This document shows, one piece after another, positions 3,419-57,480 of a DNA stretch of 64,000 nt. The stretch's first letter is position 1; every line of letters starts with the position of its first letter. This stretch comes from Escherichia coli (GTDB lineage: Bacteria > Pseudomonadota > Gammaproteobacteria > Enterobacterales > Enterobacteriaceae): assembly GCF_024700885.2 (NCBI RefSeq), contig NZ_CP117016.1; one strand, written 5' to 3'. Below the pieces are notes generated by a model. That model had not been told where the DNA came from. It worked only from the letters and a program-made list of their open reading frames with translations, and searched no databases. Made by a program: the position numbers and the translations under genes.

Positions 3419-3503
3419 GCCGAAGTGGCGAAATCGGTAGACGCAGTTGATTCAAAATCAACCGTAGAAATACGTGCCGGTTCGAGTCCGGCCTTCGGCA
3501 CCA
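3419..3503 (+). tRNA. leuX: tRNA-Leu (anticodon CAA)
   Basis: 85-nt sequence GCCGAAGTGG...TTCGAGTCCGGCCTTCGGCACCA with a CAA anticodon loop and long variable arm; genomic position after ahr. Confidence 0.9.
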
Positions 3504-8121: not shown

Positions 8122-8586
8122 ATGAAAAAATCCCTGAGAATACAGTTTGGCGAGCGGGTAAAAGAACTGCGCATTGCCACCGGATTGAGCCAGGAGGCCT
8201 TTGCCGATCGGTGCGGGTTTGCACGTAGTTATATGAGCAGAATTGAACGTGGTGGCTCTAATGCGTCTCTGGATGCGATTGAGGTGCTGGCTAACGCTCT
8301 GAGCGTTGAGCCGTGGCAGTTGTTAGCGCCTGGCCCATCTGAAGATAACGACTCGGAACTGTTGGTTCCATACGCAGCCGATGGTTCCTGTTTTCACCCC
8401 GGTTTGGCGAGCACCCGTGATGGCTCGTTTGGCGTAGGTGATAAAGCGGCTCAGAAGCGTTTTGGCACGTTTGCTGAAGCTCTTGAGTATCTTCGTAGCA
8501 TGGAGACAGCAAAATGGCGTAGGCCTAATCCTAGCGGCAACTGGGGTATCGTATCAGCGGTTCGGTGGGACAAACTGAGAAAGTAG
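8122..8586 (+). CDS. XRE-family HTH transcriptional regulator with unassigned C-terminal domain
   Basis: N-terminal HTH (LRIATGLSQEAFADRCGFARSYMSRIERG); start at MKKSLRIQ. Confidence 0.6.
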   Translation: MKKSLRIQFGERVKELRIATGLSQEAFADRCGFARSYMSRIERGGSNASLDAIEVLANALSVEPWQLLAPGPSEDNDSELLVPYAADGSCFHPGLASTRDGSFGVGDKAAQKRFGTFAEALEYLRSMETAKWRRPNPSGNWGIVSAVRWDKLRK

Positions 8587-9878: not shown

Positions 9879-10406
9879 TAAACAGGAAACACGGGGAGGT
9901 TCACTTTGCTTTCTCCTGTAGTATTTTCTGTAGGTTCTGAACCGGTTCGAGCGGGGTTGTGAGGCTGATGGCAATCCCCGGGCTCTTCCTGCATGTTACA
10001 CTGGTACTGCAACAGGGGGCCTTCGCTCCTATGACATTACTCAGTATTTTCACTACTACACCCCATCTGCCATCCATAACAACCGATTCACCCCCTCGGG
10101 AGGCGTTGTTGCCCGTCACCCGGACAGGCATCGTTATGGACTTCTCTTGTTGCACGATCGATCAATTGTTATGCATGCTGACACCACTACCCCGGTGGGT
10201 ATGACCGATGCCTTTCTCACTCTCTTCCCGGTCATCGTCGGCCTTCCCCGTTATTGTGGCGTGTCGGCACCATCGACGGCATTTCGATGGCTGCTCAGTG
10301 TTCACTCACGTTACGGCCCGCATAACCCATTGACTTCCTGAAGAAGTCGTTTCAGGGAGAGATTCAGCCCTTTTGTTACCTCCTGGACCGCTTCCTGTCC
10401 TTCCAG

Positions 10407-10681
10407 TTGGAGCGAGAGTTAGTCGGGGCGGACTTTCACCGACGGAAAGATCGTGCATTTCAAGGCACACACAACAATATCTGCGAGCGTGCTATCCGTC
10501 CGGTCGTTATGGGACGAAAGGCCTGGTTGTTCGCTGGTTCACTGATGGCCGGGAACCGAGCGGCACAGATAATGAGCCTTCTGGAAACAGCAGTCTGGAG
10601 CCACATGCTTGGCTGACGGACGTCCTAACGCGTCTGCCCGGAGTGGCCGGAGGAGAGGTTGGCAGAGTTACTGCCTCTTGA
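10407..10681 (+). pseudogene. IS66-family transposase (TnpC) C-terminal fragment
   Basis: ERAIRPVVMGRKAWLFAGS motif in one frame, continuation in another. Confidence 0.55.
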
Positions 10682-47314: not shown

Positions 47315-49602
47315 GTAAGCGTACAGCGAGGGCCGTATTGACGGGGATGTGTTATTCAGCTGGCAGTGCTATGCGCCACGGAAGCAGTTCGCTGACCCGG
47401 TTGACCGGCCAGTCTGCTATGACGCCAGGCACATGGCGAAGGTAGCTTTCTGGATCCACGTCATTCAGTTTGCACGTCCCGATCAGGCTGTACAGTAGCG
47501 CTCCCCGCTCACCACCATGGCCAGAGCCGAAGAACAGGGTCTTCATCTTTTCACGCAACCAGCTTTCCAGGGATTTCAACAGCGGTTTCGTTTTTCGCTG
47601 ACGTTCAGCAAGCCGCTGCTCTGCCGGCATTCCCCTTATATCCGCCTCTATGGCGTACAACTGACCGATCTGCTCCAGGGCTTCTTCCGTCAGTGCTGAC
47701 GGGATGCGGACGTGCACATCGTGGATCTTTCGGCGGGCATGAGCCCAGCAGGCAGCTTCCGTTATCCCACCATTGCGATACAGCTCGTTGAACCCGGCGT
47801 ACGCATCCGCTTGCAGCACACCGCTGAAGCAAGCAAGATGAGTCTGCGGATGGATGCCTTTTCTGTCCGGGCTGTAAGCGAACCTCACTGCAGGTGCCAA
47901 CGCTGACCCGGCATTGCGGTCATCACGAACATACGCCCACAACCGCCCGGTCTTCGTCTTCTTATTACCCGGCAGCAGTACCTGGACCGGGGTATCATCG
48001 GCATGGAGTTTGCCGTCAGTCATGACATAGCCATGAAGCGCCTCTTCCAGCGGAGACAGCAGCCGGCAGCATGCATCCACCCAGCCCGACAGCAGTGAAC
48101 GGCTCAGCTCCACACCTTGCCGGCCGTATATTTCTGACTGGCAATACAGCGGGGTGTGCTCTGCATACTTCGAGGTCAGCACGCGGGCCAGCAGCCCCGG
48201 TCCGGCGATACCCCGCTCGATGGGCCGCGAAGGTGCAGGTGCCTGCACGATGGCATCGCACTGAGTACAGGCATGTTTTTCCCGTACCGTCCGGATAACC
48301 CGGAAGGCGCTACGCATCAACTCCAGCTGTTCGGCGGTATCCTCGCCCAGATAGCTCAGTGAACCGCCGCAGTTCGGGCAGCACGGCGCCGCAGGCAACA
48401 GTCGCTTTTCGTCACGGGGTAGTGATTCAGGGAACGGCTTACGGGTGCGGGTCTGACGCAACGGACGCTGTACTGCCGGGTCATACACCCTACCAGTCAG
48501 CGTATCGCTCTCTTTCTGAAGCCGGTTCAGATCGGCTTCCATTTGTGCGATACGGCGGGAGACTTTTTCGGAACGACTGCCGAAGTTCATCCGGCGGAGT
48601 TTATCCAGCTGCGCCTGCAGATGTCTATTTCGCGCTCCCGGTTGCTCAGCTTTTCCTGCAGGGCGTGGATCAGCGCTTCCTGTTCGGCCAGGCGCTGTTT
48701 CAGCAGGAAGATGTCGTCAGAAGAGATTTCGTTCATAAGCCCGTATTTTACCGGGCTTATTCTGTGACAACCAGGATAAAGAGATTTACAGCATGGTCAG
48801 GGAGGTCAGCAGCCGCTTGGGCTGTCGCCAGTCGATACCTTCCAGCAGCATCGCCAGCTGCGCCTGCGTAAGGAACACTTTGCCATCACGGGCTGACGGC
48901 CAGGCGAAGCGCCCACGCTCCAGCCGTTTGGTCAGGAGGCACAGTCCGTCACCGGTGGACCACAGCAGTTTAACCTGACTGCCGCTGCGGCCCCGGAAAA
49001 TGAAAACATGGCCGGACATGGGATCGTCTTTCAGCGCCGTCTGTACTTTCGCAGCCAGGCCGTTGAAGCCATTTCTCATATCGGTGATACCGGCAACCAG
49101 CCAAATTTTGGTCCCGGAAGGTAACGGGATCATCGCTTCAGTTCCTGTATCAGCAGAGTCAGGAGCTTTTCGCTGACATTGCCATTGAAGCGGAGCGTCC
49201 CGTGCCGGAACGTTACCTCACAGCTGATACTGAGGGTTTCCGGGTCCTCTGCGAGCGATTCTGGCTGTTCGGCAGCTGCATCGGGAGTCACAGGAAGTAG
49301 CTGGGGGCTCTCTGAAGAAGGTAATAGCAGCTTTCCCTCGCGCCATTGTTGTCGCCATTTGAACAACAGATTGGCGTTAATGCCATTTTCAAGAGCAAGT
49401 TTTGAGATGGATATCCCGGGTTCACAGGAGGCAGCAACGAGCTGCTGTTTAAATTCGGGAGGATAATTAGGGCAGCCTTTTCACCTGCCGGGAGTCACAT
49501 TTTTCTGCATATCTGACACTTTGGTTCCCACTACTTATTTGGTGGACACCACTTTGTCTAATTCGTCAGATTCTGACCAGACGGTTCAGGCTGTACGCTT
49601 AC
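47315..49602 (-). mobile_element. IS66-family element, degenerate (tnpC frameshifted with an internal deletion)
   Basis: Ends GTAAGCGTAC... and ...GTACGCTTAC; orfA 49130-49366, orfB 48786-49133, tnpC pieces 47352-48590 and ~48600-48760. Confidence 0.75.
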
Positions 49603-49708
49603 CACTATTTTATCCCTGTTGAATTTGGTTAAGCCGGTGCAGACGCGCCGGGAAACGCACACCTGAACCGGCACAATAAAATACAATACAACCCCCTGTT
49701 ACTGGAGA
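49603..49708 (+). repeat. Second copy of the 106-bp repeat, directly abutting the IS66 end
   Basis: Identical to 35432-35537. Confidence 0.8.
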
Positions 49709-49864
49709 TACGAATGGAATGACGAGGCAGCCTGTCAGTCACAGGGGGCTGTTGGCATAAAATCAACGGAAAGGCCACCAACACCGGAATTAAGCTCCAC
49801 AGTCCCCGCACTGGCAATCCATTCCCGGGAAAGGCATCACCGCAAACTGCTCCGGAGGCAACCA

Positions 49865-50299
49865 TTACAGCCTCTGTAACGGATTATCAGCCCTGGCATC
49901 TTCCGACGGCACCTCCTGCCGCCCCCACGCCCTGCTGTATACCCCGGTACCGCAGCGTGGGCAGCACTTTTCCCCCTCATAATCTTCGTCACACATCACA
50001 CAAAACCACTTTCTCACCTTCACCGTATAATCCGGAACCGTCATGCCCTGCAGATGCAAACGACGGGCCTCTTTCTCCGCCGGGTCAAGCCAGGTACATC
50101 GCAGCAGGATTTTTTCAGCGACAGTCATCTGGTCATGTTCAAACCACGGTGGTTGTCCGTCATTGCCCCGCTGAAGTGTTAACGGGCATCCACAGGACAC
50201 ACAGCACAAAACGTCCTGTCGGTTGTGCTTCGCAGCTTCTTTCGCCGTAACAAAATGGCCTTTGCTGTCATTCGCCATATAACAGTTCAGAATTCGCAT
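49865..50299 (-). CDS. Zinc-ribbon hypothetical protein (paralog 1)
   Basis: CxxC pairs (CCVSCGC, CVMCDEDYEGEKCCPRCG); start set at MRILNCYM. Confidence 0.5.
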   Translation of the reverse strand: MRILNCYMANDSKGHFVTAKEAAKHNRQDVLCCVSCGCPLTLQRGNDGQPPWFEHDQMTVAEKILLRCTWLDPAEKEARRLHLQGMTVPDYTVKVRKWFCVMCDEDYEGEKCCPRCGTGVYSRAWGRQEVPSEDARADNPLQRL

Positions 50300-50694
50300 A
50301 TTTCCTCCTGAGTTGTCCGGGGAATACTGAATCCTCCGGTCTGGCAGTGTGTGCAGTACTGCTCCCCATAATAATCGTGGTGACATTGTCTGCAGTGCCA
50401 GCTGGCTTTACGCACCACGGGTAAGGCATCCGATACGAATTGCTGCAGACGTTTAATCAACTGTATTTCTCTGCGCTCCGGCCTGACATAAGGGCACTGT
50501 TGACCGTGCTCTGTCAGCCTGTCGTCAGTGTGTTCAAACCAGGGAAGTTCAGTGTCGTATTGCGGATGGTATCTGAGTGCACTGCCACACAAGTGGCAGG
50601 TGTAGTTAGCATAAGGTGCGTCCTGTGCAGTACGGGCGCCCGTCAGACGTCCGTTGCCATCAAGAGCGATAAAGGATTTTGCGTACATAGTCAT
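50287..50694 (-). CDS. Zinc-ribbon hypothetical protein (paralog 2)
   Basis: CxxC pairs (CHLCGS, CRQCHHDYYGEQYCTHC); shares the WFEH motif with paralog 1. Confidence 0.55.
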   Translation of the reverse strand: MTMYAKSFIALDGNGRLTGARTAQDAPYANYTCHLCGSALRYHPQYDTELPWFEHTDDRLTEHGQQCPYVRPERREIQLIKRLQQFVSDALPVVRKASWHCRQCHHDYYGEQYCTHCQTGGFSIPRTTQEEICEF

Positions 50695-50947
50695 ATTCCT
50701 TAGCCGCCAGACGACACGCAGGCAACAGCCGTCCCGGTACGGGCAGCGTGGTCAGGGTGTGAATGGCGGTTCAGTTAAAATCTGGACTGGAGTTTGGGTA
50801 AAGCAGGCTGGTTGCTGTTACAGCACTGTGGTTGTCACACAATGGAACACTGACGTAAAAAACAGTCAGTGGGCGAGTGGATACATCGTTGCCGCCAGAC
50901 AACAACCCATACTTTTGGTTTGCCGGATATTGGCGCGCCAGTCGTGC

Positions 50948-51517
50948 TCAACTCCGGCTACAGCCAAAATTGCGCTCACCGGTGCAGTGAGCTTTGGTAT
51001 GCTCTTTCGCCAGATAGTCAGCACGTTCCAGCACTTGCTGAAAGCCGGTGTCATCATTACGCGCCAGCCACACCGCCGGCCAGGCCGGAAAATGCACCAG
51101 CGTGGCATGGCACCCGACATCCACTCCCAGGGCACTGCACCACGCCTGTTTAATCATCCCGGCCAGAGACTCCGGAGCGCGGTAATCACCGGCACGACAC
51201 CAGGTATCCCGGTTGACCAGCAGCATCAGGTGATAGTGTTTTTTACCTTTGAACTCCCCAAACTCCCGGGCCCAGACGTAATGCAGGGGGGTGGGATGCA
51301 CGCGTTTACCTTTCCGATGCTTACGTTTCTGGTAAGCGTCGATTCGGGCTTTCAGGGCATTGATGAAGCGGGATATCACAGCTGCGTCCGTTGCTGCCGG
51401 TACATCCGGGAGACGCAGGTCAACCCGCAATGCCGTCAGGCGGGGATGAACATTCAGTGCGTGCCGCACCGTCTCACGAATACGTTGCTGCCAGAAGGGG
51501 TTGTATTTGTAGGTCAT
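50948..51517 (-). CDS. YagK/YfjJ-family (inovirus Gp2-like) protein
   Basis: Start set at MTYKYNPFWQQRIRETV; prophage-remnant family. Confidence 0.6.
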   Translation of the reverse strand: MTYKYNPFWQQRIRETVRHALNVHPRLTALRVDLRLPDVPAATDAAVISRFINALKARIDAYQKRKHRKGKRVHPTPLHYVWAREFGEFKGKKHYHLMLLVNRDTWCRAGDYRAPESLAGMIKQAWCSALGVDVGCHATLVHFPAWPAVWLARNDDTGFQQVLERADYLAKEHTKAHCTGERNFGCSRS

Positions 51518-51712
51518 GGTTAAATCTCCGTATGGTTCATACGGAATAGCCACGTCGTAAAAAATGCGCAGAGTCCCTGAAGTGACCTCCGGCAGGACAC
51601 TGTCTCAGGCACTCTGTGATAACCCGAACGGTCGTCTCCGGACTGACGGTTGAATTTTCAGCGTCGTTTTTTAATGTAAAAAACCGGTTACGGGTAAGGC
51701 TGTGAGGAGGGA

Positions 51713-51916
51713 GTGATGGTGATACGCAAAAAGAAGTGCAGGGATTGTGGAAACGCGATTACTCATAATACAGTGTGTTGCCCGTATTGTGGTTCTGTCG
51801 ACCCCTTCGGCTACTACCGGAATACAGACCGTATCGTTACCATACTGCTGGCGCTGATTATTGTGGTCCTGCTGACTACTGTCAGCGTCAGTGTGTGTAT
51901 ACTGTGTAGCTGGTGA
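51713..51916 (+). CDS. Small zinc-ribbon plus TM protein (67 aa), hypothetical
   Basis: CRDCGN...CCPYCGS followed by a hydrophobic tail. Confidence 0.3.
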   Translation: MMVIRKKKCRDCGNAITHNTVCCPYCGSVDPFGYYRNTDRIVTILLALIIVVLLTTVSVSVCILCSW

Positions 51917-53144
51917 GATAACGGTTCATGTATCCCCTGAGCTGACAGTGTACCGTGTATATTAAGCGTAACCGACAGGTTCTCCTTCATACCATATTAA
52001 ATTTTCCAGGGATTGCCGCTGCCTTATTTCGTCTCATACAGGAAAACTCATCTGGGTTTCTGACAAATACGCGAAACTCACAGCCCCTCAATATCAACCA
52101 CACGTTGTAAGCCGGTAATACCTGAAAATCAGCCTATTACCGCCCACGCCTCCGGCACCATTCCCTTTTGATTTCGAATTCTTTGTTGTCGCTATACCGC
52201 TTAATGTTCCCGGTCCTCCGGTGCAGATAACACCGGAGTCATCGTAGCGCTGCTTCAATATTCAGGTGACATATTTCCAGACGGAAGCCGGCGCGCGATC
52301 GTAAAGTTTGTTCATTGTCAGTTCTGCCAGCCGGTTGTCAACGGCAGAGTTAAAGGCTTCCAGCTCCGCAAGGGTAAGTTTATAACGCGTGTGGGAATTC
52401 ACTTTTCCCGCGTCTCCTGACGTATTACGGGCTGCCACTTACCTGGTGTCCCGCAATACAGCCTTAGTGTTCCGTTATCGGGGATCCGGACGCACCGCAA
52501 CAACCGGGGAAGTATTTCTGGTTTAGAGCATTGTCAAGAGGGATTTCTCAGCCCCTCACTCACCGCTCAGTCTCAGGGCAGGAGCATTAATACGCTCAGT
52601 TCATGTCTTATACAGGAATGGGCACAGGGGGAGCTGGCGTGTCACTGCTGATTTTACGCATCAGCGTTCATGTATCTGCACTCTGATACATGAACGATTC
52701 ACAGCGCTCTGTTACCGGAGAGATTTACTCTCTTAGCTTACTCTGGCAAATCCTTTACGTTACTCTCTGATGACTTCTTATATTTATAATACCAATCAGA
52801 CAGCCTTATCCCATCGGTGATATCAGTCTCCTCCTCGCCAGGAACGGGCTGACTCACTGTAACCACCTCCGAAAACAACTCTGCAATTATCAGAACGCCT
52901 GCTTCTCTCCCTGTCCTCACGAAAACTATCCCCTCTTTATCGCGCGTGCGTGCGGAAGCATCTTTTCGCAACAACCACCCGGTATACCGGTACGGCTCAG
53001 CCACCGCAACCTCCCCGTTTATCTCCTGGCGGTCACATTCCCGATTATTTTTTACGTTTCTCCCCGGTTGTTATGCCGGTGAAGGTGGCGCGCTGTTTTC
53101 ATGACCACACCGGCTGGTTTAACAACATCCGGAGGAACATTCTC

Positions 53145-53351
53145 ATGGCTACCCCAGTTTCACTGATGGATGACCAGATGGTCGACATGGCATTTATCAC
53201 TCAACTGAACGGCCTGACAGATAAGTGGTTTTACAGGCTCATCAGGGATGGGGCCTTTCCGGCTCCCATCAAGCTGGGCCGCAGCTCCCGCTGGCTGAAA
53301 AGTGAAGTGGAAGCCTGGCTACAGGCGCGTATTGCACAGCCCCGCCCGTAA
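53145..53351 (+). CDS. alpA: AlpA-family phage transcriptional regulator
   Basis: AFITQLNGLTDKWFYRLIRDGAFPAPIKLGRSSRWLKSEVEAWL; SD ggagga. Confidence 0.75.
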   Translation: MATPVSLMDDQMVDMAFITQLNGLTDKWFYRLIRDGAFPAPIKLGRSSRWLKSEVEAWLQARIAQPRP

Positions 53352-54048: not shown

Positions 54049-55233
54049 TGCCGGTTGCTTCCGGAAGGTGTGACAAAATACGGAAATGATGATGCTCCCG
54101 GCCCCGCATGCTCACCTGCAGAGCGTGTTCGTCGTCATCATACTGAGCCATGACGGGCGTCTTAAGGGCATCCTGTCATTGCTGAGCAGGCAACACCACC
54201 AGAGGAGCCACGGACAGGGATGTTCTTTACAGCCCGATACACGCCAGGTTCTCAGCAGACTGAATGTGCAGGTGCGGTTATTCACCAGAAATGGCATGCT
54301 GCGGTACATACCCATCCTGGTGACAATATGTACGTGGCGACAGCGATCCCGGCACTGTGGAAGAGACTCACTCAGCCTGCAGGATATTCTTTCCGGCATC
54401 CGGGAATGTCCGCCTGAATGCAAACAGGATGATATTTGAATCCGTAATACTGTTCTTTCATCATAAATAATTTATGCAGATACAGTTAACCGTTACAGTA
54501 GCCGGTTTGTTTTACCGGGAAATAATATCCGTCAGACTGATGCCGGAACATATCTGAAACACGTTATGATGTTTTGTTATCAGAAATGTTGTATATTCTT
54601 ATCCGTGGCGACAGTTTAATGCCCTCTGGTATCACCTTGGATTTGCCCCTATATTTACGGGACACGCCTCTTTTCATTGTGCTCCTTTTCAGACTTCATT
54701 TTCCGTAAGTGTTCCCCGGCATAAAGGAGGTACCTTTCTGGCGTTTATAACTCTCTTTATCGGTGACGCCGGTAATACAGGGAATACCACACCGACAAAC
54801 GAGGTATTAACAGACGATATTTCAGTGTCCATAATTTTTCTGTCCGGTTAAATAACGTCAGTCTGCTGCCCTCTGACTGTAATCATCAAAGCCGGAATGC
54901 ATACCGGGTTACAACGTAAAAAAAGTGATGCTGGCCCCCGGTGCAGCTGGCGGGCGAAACATGTTTACCTTTCAATACCCCCTGTCTGCAGTCTCCACTC
55001 TTCCATCCTCTTAAGCTACGTCGGCCACATGAGTGCACTTCCATGATAACAGGTATTCCTGTCAGCATAACGAAGCCGGTTACCTTCCCTTCCTCCTGCA
55101 TTTCCTGTCAGAATGACTGTACAGCGCGCAGATTGCCTTTTTATTGACCACCTTAATATACCATTATAAACTTCTTTTTATCATGTTATTATCACCTTAT
55201 TATGTTTAATTTTTAAGCAACCGGAGAAAGAGG

Positions 55234-56151
55234 ATGGTTCAGAAAATTTTGTCGGATAAGGTTATGAATGAAAGAACAAATGCGTATTACTCTTATTATC
55301 TTGGAGAGCGTAATATCTCCGTACTGCCCCTTAATGTTTATGATCCCCCGGAACGTTTTATCGCTTACATAAAAAAAAACAGAGAAAATCTGAACATCAC
55401 ACTTTCAGATTTTGAACTTGAACAAATCATTTCTGGTATGCGTCTGAAGGCACTGGCCTCCCTGGTGCCCCTGGAAAAAATATCCTGGATCGCGGGCAGT
55501 GAACGTGCATGCTTATTTTCCTGGTATCTGTTGATGCAGTTTATCCAGAATAACAGGACAAAAATAAGCGCAGACTTGCTTCAAAAGAATAAACTGTATC
55601 TTAAAGAAGAGTATTTAGAAGGGAATGCCTTCCCGTCGGACTCATCGACACAGTTCAGACAAATACTCAGAGTTCTCGATATTCTTTCTGATAAGAATTT
55701 GCGGGATGAGTGGATAATCCAGACCAAAGACAGATGGATGCGGGCATTTAAATCAAAGAGTCCTTTCAGTTACCTCCTCCCGGAGAACGAACATGAATGC
55801 ATATGGACATGGAATTATTTGAAGGGAAAAAATATTGCACTGGAAAAACTGGCCAGTTTTCCTGGTTCTGCTGATATTTACCACGCAATTCACCTTTCAT
55901 TTGACATATGGGTTACCTGTCCACTCACCTCACCTGACGATATAAAAAATTTCAGAAACAGTTTCAATAAGGCCAAGGCGCAGCGCAAGTACAAAAAAAT
56001 GCAGGAAGATAAAGTCAATGTACAGTTTTTTCTTGACGCAGAAACCAGGGCGCAGCTCAAAGAATTATCGAGGGTCAGAAGACTCAGTACCGGCGAAATG
56101 CTGCATGACCTGATTGTTGAAGAGTATAAAAGGTACCGACATTCCAGATAA
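55234..56151 (+). CDS. Hypothetical protein, 305 aa, AT-rich, C-terminal ribbon-helix-helix-like segment
   Basis: Strong SD (gagaaagagg); C-terminus VNVQFFLDAETRAQLKELSRVRRLSTGEMLHDLI looks like strand-helix. Confidence 0.55.
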   Translation: MVQKILSDKVMNERTNAYYSYYLGERNISVLPLNVYDPPERFIAYIKKNRENLNITLSDFELEQIISGMRLKALASLVPLEKISWIAGSERACLFSWYLLMQFIQNNRTKISADLLQKNKLYLKEEYLEGNAFPSDSSTQFRQILRVLDILSDKNLRDEWIIQTKDRWMRAFKSKSPFSYLLPENEHECIWTWNYLKGKNIALEKLASFPGSADIYHAIHLSFDIWVTCPLTSPDDIKNFRNSFNKAKAQRKYKKMQEDKVNVQFFLDAETRAQLKELSRVRRLSTGEMLHDLIVEEYKRYRHSR

Positions 56152-57108: not shown

Positions 57109-57227
57109 ACACTCTGCCAGGGGAAATGCCTGATTACATTGCGTTAACCAACTGAAAACATGACACAAACACCTCATGCCCCTCCTGTTTCTCTTGCGTG
57201 ACTGCTCTGCTGTTAATAGAATAAAAC

Positions 57228-57263
57228 GATCGATAAAACAGGTATCGATCGTTACTATCGATC
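57228..57263. promoter_or_regulatory. agn43 phase-variation switch: three GATC Dam sites in the OxyR-binding region
   Basis: GATC at 57228, 57247 and 57260 within cgatcgataaaacaggtatcgatcgttactatcgatcg, upstream of flu. Confidence 0.75.
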
Positions 57264-57422
57264 GTTTATAGTGGTTAATGGTCTGCGAAAAGGCAGCTGA
57301 ATCTCTTCATCATGCAGAACGGAATTGCACACAACGGACTGATACTTCTCTGGCGGATGAGAGAGGGGAAGCATTTATGTCCGGGAAAAACCACTTTATC
57401 TGACCATGCTGTTTTGTACCTG

Positions 57423-57457
57423 CCGGTATCCACATTTGTGGGTACCGGCTTTTTTAT
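57423..57457 (+). terminator. Rho-independent terminator-like hairpin in the agn43 leader
   Basis: 11-bp stem ccggtatccac...gtgggtaccgg with one G-U pair, then CTTTTTTATT, 24 bp upstream of the flu ATG. Confidence 0.6.
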
Positions 57458-57480
57458 TCACCCTCTGTAAGGAAAAGCTG

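Follow-up and report, generated by a model that had tools for sequence, protein, structure and literature searches.

We analyzed a stretch of 64,000 nucleotides (nt) of Escherichia coli DNA (contig NZ_CP117016.1 of RefSeq assembly GCF_024700885.2; hereafter the window, meaning the whole stretch at its full length), with a focus on three adjacent minus-strand genes at 49865-51517. The first of them encodes a protein of the YagK/YfjJ family, referred to here as Gp2-like, and the other two encode small zinc-ribbon proteins, ZnR-A and ZnR-B. The trio and its non-coding features are listed below, with the names given by the Prokaryotic Genome Annotation Pipeline (PGAP) and protein lengths in amino acids (aa).

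51518-51715, no strand: intergenic region from which the Gp2-like gene and a small plus-strand open reading frame (ORF) diverge; presumed operon promoter region, from the gene layout
50948-51517, minus strand: YagK/YfjJ-family (Gp2-like) gene, 'inovirus Gp2 family protein' (PGAP); 189 aa, isoelectric point (pI) 9.9
50695-50777, minus strand: conserved non-coding leader of about 83 nt, directly 5' of ZnR-A; CCGCCA...CCGGGACGG...TGTCGTCTGGCGG, then a Shine-Dalgarno sequence
50287-50688, minus strand: ZnR-A, 'putative zinc ribbon protein' (PGAP); 133 aa; the ORF reaches 50694
50287-50299, minus strand: overlap of the ZnR-A stop and the ZnR-B start, with GGAGG just 5' of the ZnR-B ATG
49865-50299, minus strand: ZnR-B, 'zinc-ribbon domain-containing protein' (PGAP); 144 aa; GGAGG Shine-Dalgarno sequence

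The overlap between the two zinc-ribbon genes, put at about 13 bp in a preliminary description of this DNA, is of exactly 13 nt as read from the sequence. An identical overlap is found in Serratia (L002), in Hafnia (L009) and on a Klebsiella plasmid (L023), and the two genes are probably translationally coupled. The true start of ZnR-A is likely 50688 and not 50694, because PGAP uses 50688, this start lies 8 nt after an AAGGA sequence and homologs begin with MYAKSF. No strong sigma-70 consensus was found by a promoter scan of 51518-51715, and promoter and terminator scans of the region gave background levels. Just 3' of ZnR-B, at 49688-49752, lie a 17-nt inverted repeat (88% complementary, 31-nt loop) and a minus-strand terminator-like hairpin, a region that may represent the end of the operon.

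The zinc-ribbon paralogs and the Gp2-like protein

ZnR-A and ZnR-B share 30% identity over 125 aa (BLASTP, E 1e-14), a similarity far beyond chance, and by this comparison they are true paralogs, in agreement with their earlier reading as a tandem pair. Both exceed the Pfam gathering cut-offs for the same two domains, DUF7828 (cut-off 25.7 bits; ZnR-A 106.7 bits, E 5e-31; ZnR-B 105.8 bits, E 9e-31) and Zn_ribbon_11 (cut-off 24 bits; ZnR-A 35.3 bits, E 9e-9; ZnR-B 66.4 bits, E 2e-18). Two CxxC pairs had been attributed to each protein; we count three, one N-terminal and two C-terminal. In an alignment of 37 diverse members of the family, C33, C36, F53, H55, C100, C103, C113 and C116 are invariant, while C68 (at least 90%), W98, G109 and G119 are nearly so. 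The shared WFEH motif of the preliminary description thus contributes an invariant residue, since its histidine is H55. Because this pattern of Cys and His ligands is conserved across the 37 members, two metal sites per protein are implied, namely an N-terminal C2HC site formed by C33, C36, H55 and C68, and a C-terminal C4 ribbon formed by C100, C103, C113 and C116.

The AlphaFold2 model of ZnR-B is confident (pLDDT 88.7); a structural search with the ZnR model found no informative neighbour, and the sole match of a profile search of the PDB was the two-ribbon protein Rpb9, at a marginal E of 0.015. Weak matches to CoiA_N recur in 12 of the 37 members (best E 7e-5), around the first CxxC...H site, as do weak matches to DUF7830 in nine, all of them with scores below the Pfam cut-offs. 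The family is small, since a search of 1.84 billion representative proteins yielded 264 clusters at E<=1e-3, and ZnR-A orthologs of Hafnia, Superficieibacter, Yokenella and Serratia are 56-63% identical to the protein of the window. Purifying selection acts on all three genes: the omega values are 0.07 (ZnR-B), 0.17 (ZnR-A) and 0.27 (the Gp2-like gene), each coming from a comparison of the window with one 92-96%-identical E. coli copy (92% in the case of ZnR-A) and from few substitutions.

The assignment of the neighbouring gene to the YagK/YfjJ family is borne out by a match to PF11726 of 162.6 bits (cut-off 25.8) that spans profile positions 1-170 of 170. In addition, the protein matches PF23343 (REP_ORF2-G2P) partially, with 26.2 bits, under the 27.8-bit cut-off, which suggests a resemblance to inovirus gpII proper at the family level only. 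Across homologs from many Enterobacterales, three groups of residues are invariant or at least 90% conserved: (i) E85, which is invariant, (ii) the HUH motif H94-Y95-H96, which is followed by hydrophobic residues and opens a predicted strand at 94-102, and (iii) Y168-L-A-K171, a Yxx[K] motif conserved at 90% or more, C-terminal to HUH at the end of a predicted helix (156-170), together with T174-K175. The predicted fold is that of a HUH nuclease. Compared with a set of HUH Rep proteins, it scored 8.4 against the SIRV1 ORF119 Rep, structurally the closest, and then 7.8 against the parvovirus MVM NS1, 7.0 against Helraiser, 6.6 against RepB of pMV158, 6.2 against TnpA-REP and 5.5 against the AAV5 Rep. 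From the HUH and Tyr motifs, together with the predicted fold, we predict the YagK-like protein to be a catalytically competent Rep-type HUH nickase with a single tyrosine. The preliminary description knew of no defined function for any of the three genes. In this regard, full-text literature searches returned no functional study of any of them (YagK/YfjJ, the Pfam accessions and 'inovirus Gp2' yield annotations only), so that the statement holds for the literature; for the YagK-like gene, however, a function can now be predicted.

Operon architecture, leader and distribution

A Gp2-like gene lies within about 1.5 kb upstream of every ZnR gene whose upstream sequence is readable, usually with AlpA in between. 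This arrangement is found in Serratia (L002), Klebsiella (L003/L004), Hafnia (L009), Superficieibacter (L010), Yokenella (L011), Lelliottia (L012), the contig L006, large Klebsiella plasmids (L023) and E. coli, as well as in three divergent lineages (L015/L016, L017 and L018/L019). The converse fails, as Pectobacterium (L005) carries Gp2-AlpA without a ZnR gene, and such a one-way dependence is the pattern expected of an accessory factor. Co-occurrence across CP4-like elements, proposed earlier as a statistical check, is seen in every readable locus but rests on about 12 independent lineages and not on statistics, the scan of the genome collection having given only seven loci.

In Hafnia, Superficieibacter, Yokenella and the plasmid pRWS291.s3, the operon is fuller and reads Gp2 - AlpA - 44-aa mini zinc ribbon - ZnR-A - ZnR-B - second Gp2-like gene - DUF2913 - cargo, the DUF2913 gene following the second Gp2-like gene on the Klebsiella plasmid. 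The second Gp2-like gene, here Gp2', comes directly after ZnR-B and is also called inovirus-type Gp2 by PGAP; its product has lost the HUH motif (which reads 'ECKMVLLLN') and the Tyr motif, and looks like a pseudo-nuclease partner. It occurs at the following places:

L009: 7426-8061
L010 and L011
L023: 9493-10059
L006: 3217-4161, fused to ZnR

The fused form, P0303 (454 aa, on the metagenomic contig L006), joins a ZnR protein to a Gp2-like domain from which the HUH and Tyr motifs are gone; this C-terminal part is similar (E 8e-24) to the intact Gp2-like protein of 350 aa encoded next to it. Orthologs of both the ZnR-A and the ZnR-B type are kept in several genera; a single ZnR gene is present in the chromosomal copies of Klebsiella and Lelliottia, and two are present in L018. 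The ORF of the mini zinc ribbon (WTCPRCQRRYCGIKPCPVC; 6318-6452 in L009) is located between AlpA and ZnR-A, is also present in L010, L011, L003/L004 and L008, and matches the C-terminal ribbon of the ZnR profile.

No homolog of Gp2' or of the mini zinc ribbon was found in the window, nor did tblastn detect an AlpA remnant in the 253-bp gap between the Gp2-like gene and ZnR-A. Since it is devoid of AlpA, the mini ribbon and the inactive Gp2 paralog, the E. coli trio is, as judged from gene content, a reduced derivative of the fuller operon, and it keeps this form in different E. coli island variants. The complete Gp2-AlpA-ZnR-A-ZnR-B-Gp2' module, with DUF932 and WYL neighbours, also sits on pRWS291.s3 (L023) and about 20 similar plasmids of 210-480 kb from Klebsiella, Citrobacter and Raoultella, where it adjoins an RND efflux cluster; such islands thus insert into plasmids too.

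The leader at 50695-50777 is 75-87% identical to its counterparts in Serratia, Hafnia, Superficieibacter and Yokenella, four close genera in which it is conserved at least as well as the adjacent coding sequence, and the identity falls to 60% in Klebsiella (L003/L004) and 51% in Serratia oryzae (L008). Homology ends abruptly at its 5' end. The leader, which also contains CCGCCA...TGGCGG, is not coding, because its indels are not multiples of three and break the frame. A structured RNA finds no support: the minimum free energy has a z of -1.2, the RNAalifold covariation term is positive (unfavourable), with one of 18 pairs compensatory, and Rfam gave no match even at E<=1. Folded as single-stranded DNA, the leader is marginally more stable than shuffled versions of it (z -2.2). 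Possible roles are those of a promoter or operator, or of a site of protein recognition or nicking.

The wide conservation attributed to the module is confirmed within E. coli. As a contiguous unit, covering at least 80% of the 2.1-kb query, the trio is present in 2695 of 5426 complete genomes, and some part of it in 3837 of them (about 70%), with a median of two copies, almost always chromosomal; the ZnR pair alone was located at 8204 places in 3787 genomes. The window itself matches E. coli MLI114. Among 50,697 phage records, tblastn found no match to ZnR, which has no PHROG either; for the Gp2-like protein there are PHROG 25019, of unknown function, and a single, unverified phage record of 4.5 kb. 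None of the three proteins has a match in NCBIfam. The families of the trio are already catalogued, as Pfam domains of unknown function and PGAP names, and the copy in the window is an ordinary member; the operon-level picture, the pair of active and inactive Gp2 proteins, the ZnR-Gp2' fusion and the conserved leader were not found in the searchable literature.

A possible accessory role of the zinc-ribbon proteins at a predicted island nickase

Our findings point toward the idea that the ZnR proteins are accessory subunits of a nickase that serves the replication or mobilisation of the island, a reading to which we give a probability of roughly 45%. CP4-like islands with a tyrosine integrase would share a conserved core operon, of which the trio would be the form reduced in E. 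coli. The first gene of the trio would encode a small basic Rep-class HUH endonuclease, distantly similar to inovirus gpII, with E85, H94 and H96 as metal site and Y168 as catalytic residue, whose expression would go together with that of AlpA, the activator of excision (encoded in cis in other genera). The enzyme would cut a specific site on one strand of the island DNA and become covalently attached to it, and with this nick the excised island would begin to replicate in a rolling-circle-type manner or be transferred as a single strand. HUH enzymes have precedents in other integrated elements, among them the relaxase-driven rolling-circle replication of ICEBs1 and the Rep-like relaxases of integrative mobilisable elements. 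ZnR-A and ZnR-B, presumably ancient duplicates that are translationally coupled and hold two structural zinc sites each, would combine an N-terminal C2HC module remotely similar to the N-terminal zinc domain of the nuclease CoiA with the C-terminal C4 ribbon. They would most likely act together, probably as a hetero-oligomer that binds the nickase (or its dead paralog), the DNA substrate or both, and in this way target or regulate nicking.

A functional tie between ZnR proteins and nickase is supported in four ways: ZnR genes always follow a Gp2-like gene but not vice versa, one protein fuses a ZnR to a Gp2-like domain, both paralogs are kept along with an unchanging overlap, and the family shows remote similarity to CoiA_N. 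The role as accessory subunits is further supported by the position of AlpA, an activator of island excision, inside the operon of other genera, by omega values of 0.07-0.27 and by the fact that Gp2-like and AlpA genes belong to the core of mobile Pseudomonas transfer-messenger RNA (tmRNA) islands. Four observations weigh against it: no nick site or cognate origin was identified, the leader at 50695-50777 being a mere candidate; the ZnR-Gp2' fusion comes from a single contig; in Yokenella, a swapped Gp2 subtype stands beside conserved ZnR genes; and the ZnR proteins are near-neutral, with a median pI of 7.6, as opposed to the basic Gp2 (pI 9.9).

The most plausible of the alternatives, though in our estimate an unlikely one, is that ZnR-A and ZnR-B are small zinc-finger transcription factors that activate island, cargo or helper genes in the manner of P2 Ogr and P4 Delta, with the leader as their own operator or that of AlpA. 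Small, Cys-rich, duplicated proteins encoded beside the regulator AlpA in a P4-like cryptic element would fit such a role, as would the conserved non-coding sequence 5' of ZnR-A and the marginal likeness to Rpb9, which is one of overall architecture. Ogr_Delta, however, is not among the matches listed for the 37 members (25 of 40 Pfam families, E<=0.1), and the fusion to a Gp2-like domain together with the strict Gp2-like neighbourhood points to a nickase as partner and not to RNA polymerase. More doubtful still is a function as an anti-defence or defence factor, for instance one that inhibits or senses nucleic-acid enzymes of the host or of phages, located at the edge of the cargo and merely co-transcribed with Gp2. 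ZnR-B does abut variable cargo, in which restriction-modification, TIR and other conflict systems abound at other loci, and the islands also hold antirestriction, RadC and DUF932 genes. Nevertheless, the ZnR genes are kept while the cargo varies, and on this ground we consider them the conserved edge of a cargo hotspot, and hence island core, and not cargo. The fusion, the absence of ZnR from the phage records and the lack of any match to the component models of PADLOC-DB v2 (E<=0.01) for the three proteins likewise argue against defence. A toxicity or phage-exclusion role, for which assays were proposed earlier, has no support, in view also of the fact that ZnR always follows a Gp2-like gene.

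Two small overlapping genes in a cryptic element that also carries CbtA/YeeU might, finally, form an addiction pair of the toxin-antitoxin kind, or be non-functional remnants of a decayed prophage, and some copies are indeed frameshifted, such as ZnR-B in uropathogenic E. coli (UPEC) 536. Both options are very improbable. The two ZnR genes are paralogs of each other, as toxin-antitoxin pairs are not, they match no toxin-antitoxin family, and with omega values of 0.07-0.17 they are conserved across genera; we rejected the toxin-antitoxin and the pseudogene readings on the basis of this paralogy (BLASTP) and of omega.

Returning to the accessory-subunit reading, a bolder and rather improbable extension of it is that active Gp2, ZnR-A and ZnR-B (and dead Gp2' where present) form an undescribed nickase holoenzyme. 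CP4-like islands, which have no recognisable relaxase, primase or packaging genes, would by its action replicate after AlpA-triggered excision or exit as single-stranded DNA on conjugative plasmids or phages, and the 83-nt leader would be its recognition or nick site. If true, this would explain the spread of defence and virulence cargo by one of the commonest island types of Enterobacterales. CP4-like islands are present in most E. coli genomes, often in several copies, and carry adhesins, toxin-antitoxin pairs, anti-restriction genes and many anti-phage systems in their variable region. A HUH nickase with dedicated zinc-ribbon partners at the boundary between core and cargo would, if confirmed, offer a concrete handle on island mobility and a first biochemical context for two Pfam domains of unknown function.

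Island context and comparison with known systems

The CP4-type setting assigned to the trio in the preliminary description is supported by the gene content of the island. On one side, the trio is flanked by the small plus-strand ORF, a Hha-like gene, an AlpA-family helix-turn-helix gene, a YeeP-like GTPase gene, Ag43, DUF905 and DUF932, followed by an antirestriction gene, a RadC-like JAB gene, DUF987 and YeeU/CbtA. At the opposite flank, 3' of ZnR-B, annotated genes begin about 450 bp past the stop with an IS66 copy, beyond which lies mosaic cargo. The neighbours with defined positions are:

53145-53351, plus strand: AlpA-family helix-turn-helix gene (PGAP annotation), 66% identical to the AlpA of the Klebsiella operon
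52262-52438, minus strand: Hha/YmoA-family gene, placed with the AlpA gene between the trio and the YeeP/Ag43 module
47352-49414, minus strand: IS66 copy with frameshifted tnpC, tnpB and truncated tnpA

AlpA, elsewhere inside the Gp2-ZnR operon, is displaced in E. coli, which indicates that the E. coli islands have been rearranged. The 66-aa ORF divergent from the Gp2-like gene (51716-51916, plus strand; hypothetical protein WP_001297219.1) encodes a zinc ribbon of the CxxC...CxxC type and, after it, a hydrophobic tail that probably spans the membrane, and occupies the same place in UPEC 536 and in another E. coli island variant. A hypothetical protein of 290-410 aa is encoded divergently upstream of the Gp2 operon in L002 (3828-4712) and L018 (437-1666), with weak precomputed matches to RepB-RCR_reg, a regulator of rolling-circle plasmid replication, and a 305-aa hypothetical protein of the window (about 55233-56150, plus strand) lies at the equivalent place. 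Elsewhere in the window, we noted a perfect 12-nt inverted repeat with an 8-nt spacer at 52665-52696 (CGTTCATGTATC / GATACATGAACG), between the Hha-like gene and an 88-aa ORF; an Rfam match to the IS102 small RNA at 57226-57462 (plus strand, 74.6 bits), between the YeeP-like GTPase gene and Ag43; a tRNA gene at 3419-3500 (plus strand), possibly the integration site of the island; a match to the D1-D4 domains of a group II intron at 10306-10445 (minus strand); and many spurious overlapping ORFs in the ORF list over the IS66 region.

Among known systems, YfjJ and YagK of the K-12 elements CP4-57 and CP4-6 belong to the Pfam family (PF11726) of the Gp2-like protein. The K-12 gene order is alpA-yfjI-yfjJ, and the islands are of the kind seen in the window, in that AlpA is close by and defence cargo lies downstream. 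The K-12 copies are not known to have adjacent ZnR genes, and the subfamily of the window differs in its length of 189 aa. We found no characterisation of K-12 YfjJ or YagK in the literature. Ogr of P2 and Delta of P4, both zinc-finger late activators, are small zinc proteins of Cys4 type from P2/P4-type elements, Delta being a tandem duplication; the ZnR proteins depart from them in the missing Ogr_Delta match already mentioned, in their domain make-up and in their linkage to a nickase.

The Pseudomonas tmRNA islands I23, I44 and I55, which are transduced by jumbo phages, have a core of tyrosine integrase, AlpA, inovirus Gp2-like and RadC genes, together with defence cargo, and differ from the island of the window in that no ZnR genes are reported for them (PNAS 2025, PMC12595487). 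CoiA resolves D-loops as a structure-specific DNA nuclease (bioRxiv 10.1101/2024.02.06.579203). The weak, recurrent profile similarity of ZnR to CoiA_N and DUF7830 near the first CxxC...H concerns a domain that in CoiA is attached to the nuclease; unlike CoiA, the ZnR proteins have no PD-(D/E)XK domain and possess an extra C4 ribbon.

The Gp2-like protein resembles inovirus gpII (REP_ORF2-G2P) and the HUH Reps in its predicted fold, in the order of its motifs (HUH lies on a central strand and precedes Yxx[K], which is carried by a C-terminal helix), in a metal site that combines a Glu with two His and in being small and basic. It differs from them in having 189 aa and a single Tyr, without a helicase or oligomerisation domain. 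Sequence similarity is marginal, and the gene resides in an integrase-bearing chromosomal island without inovirus structural genes, where its product is partnered with an inactive paralog and zinc-ribbon proteins.

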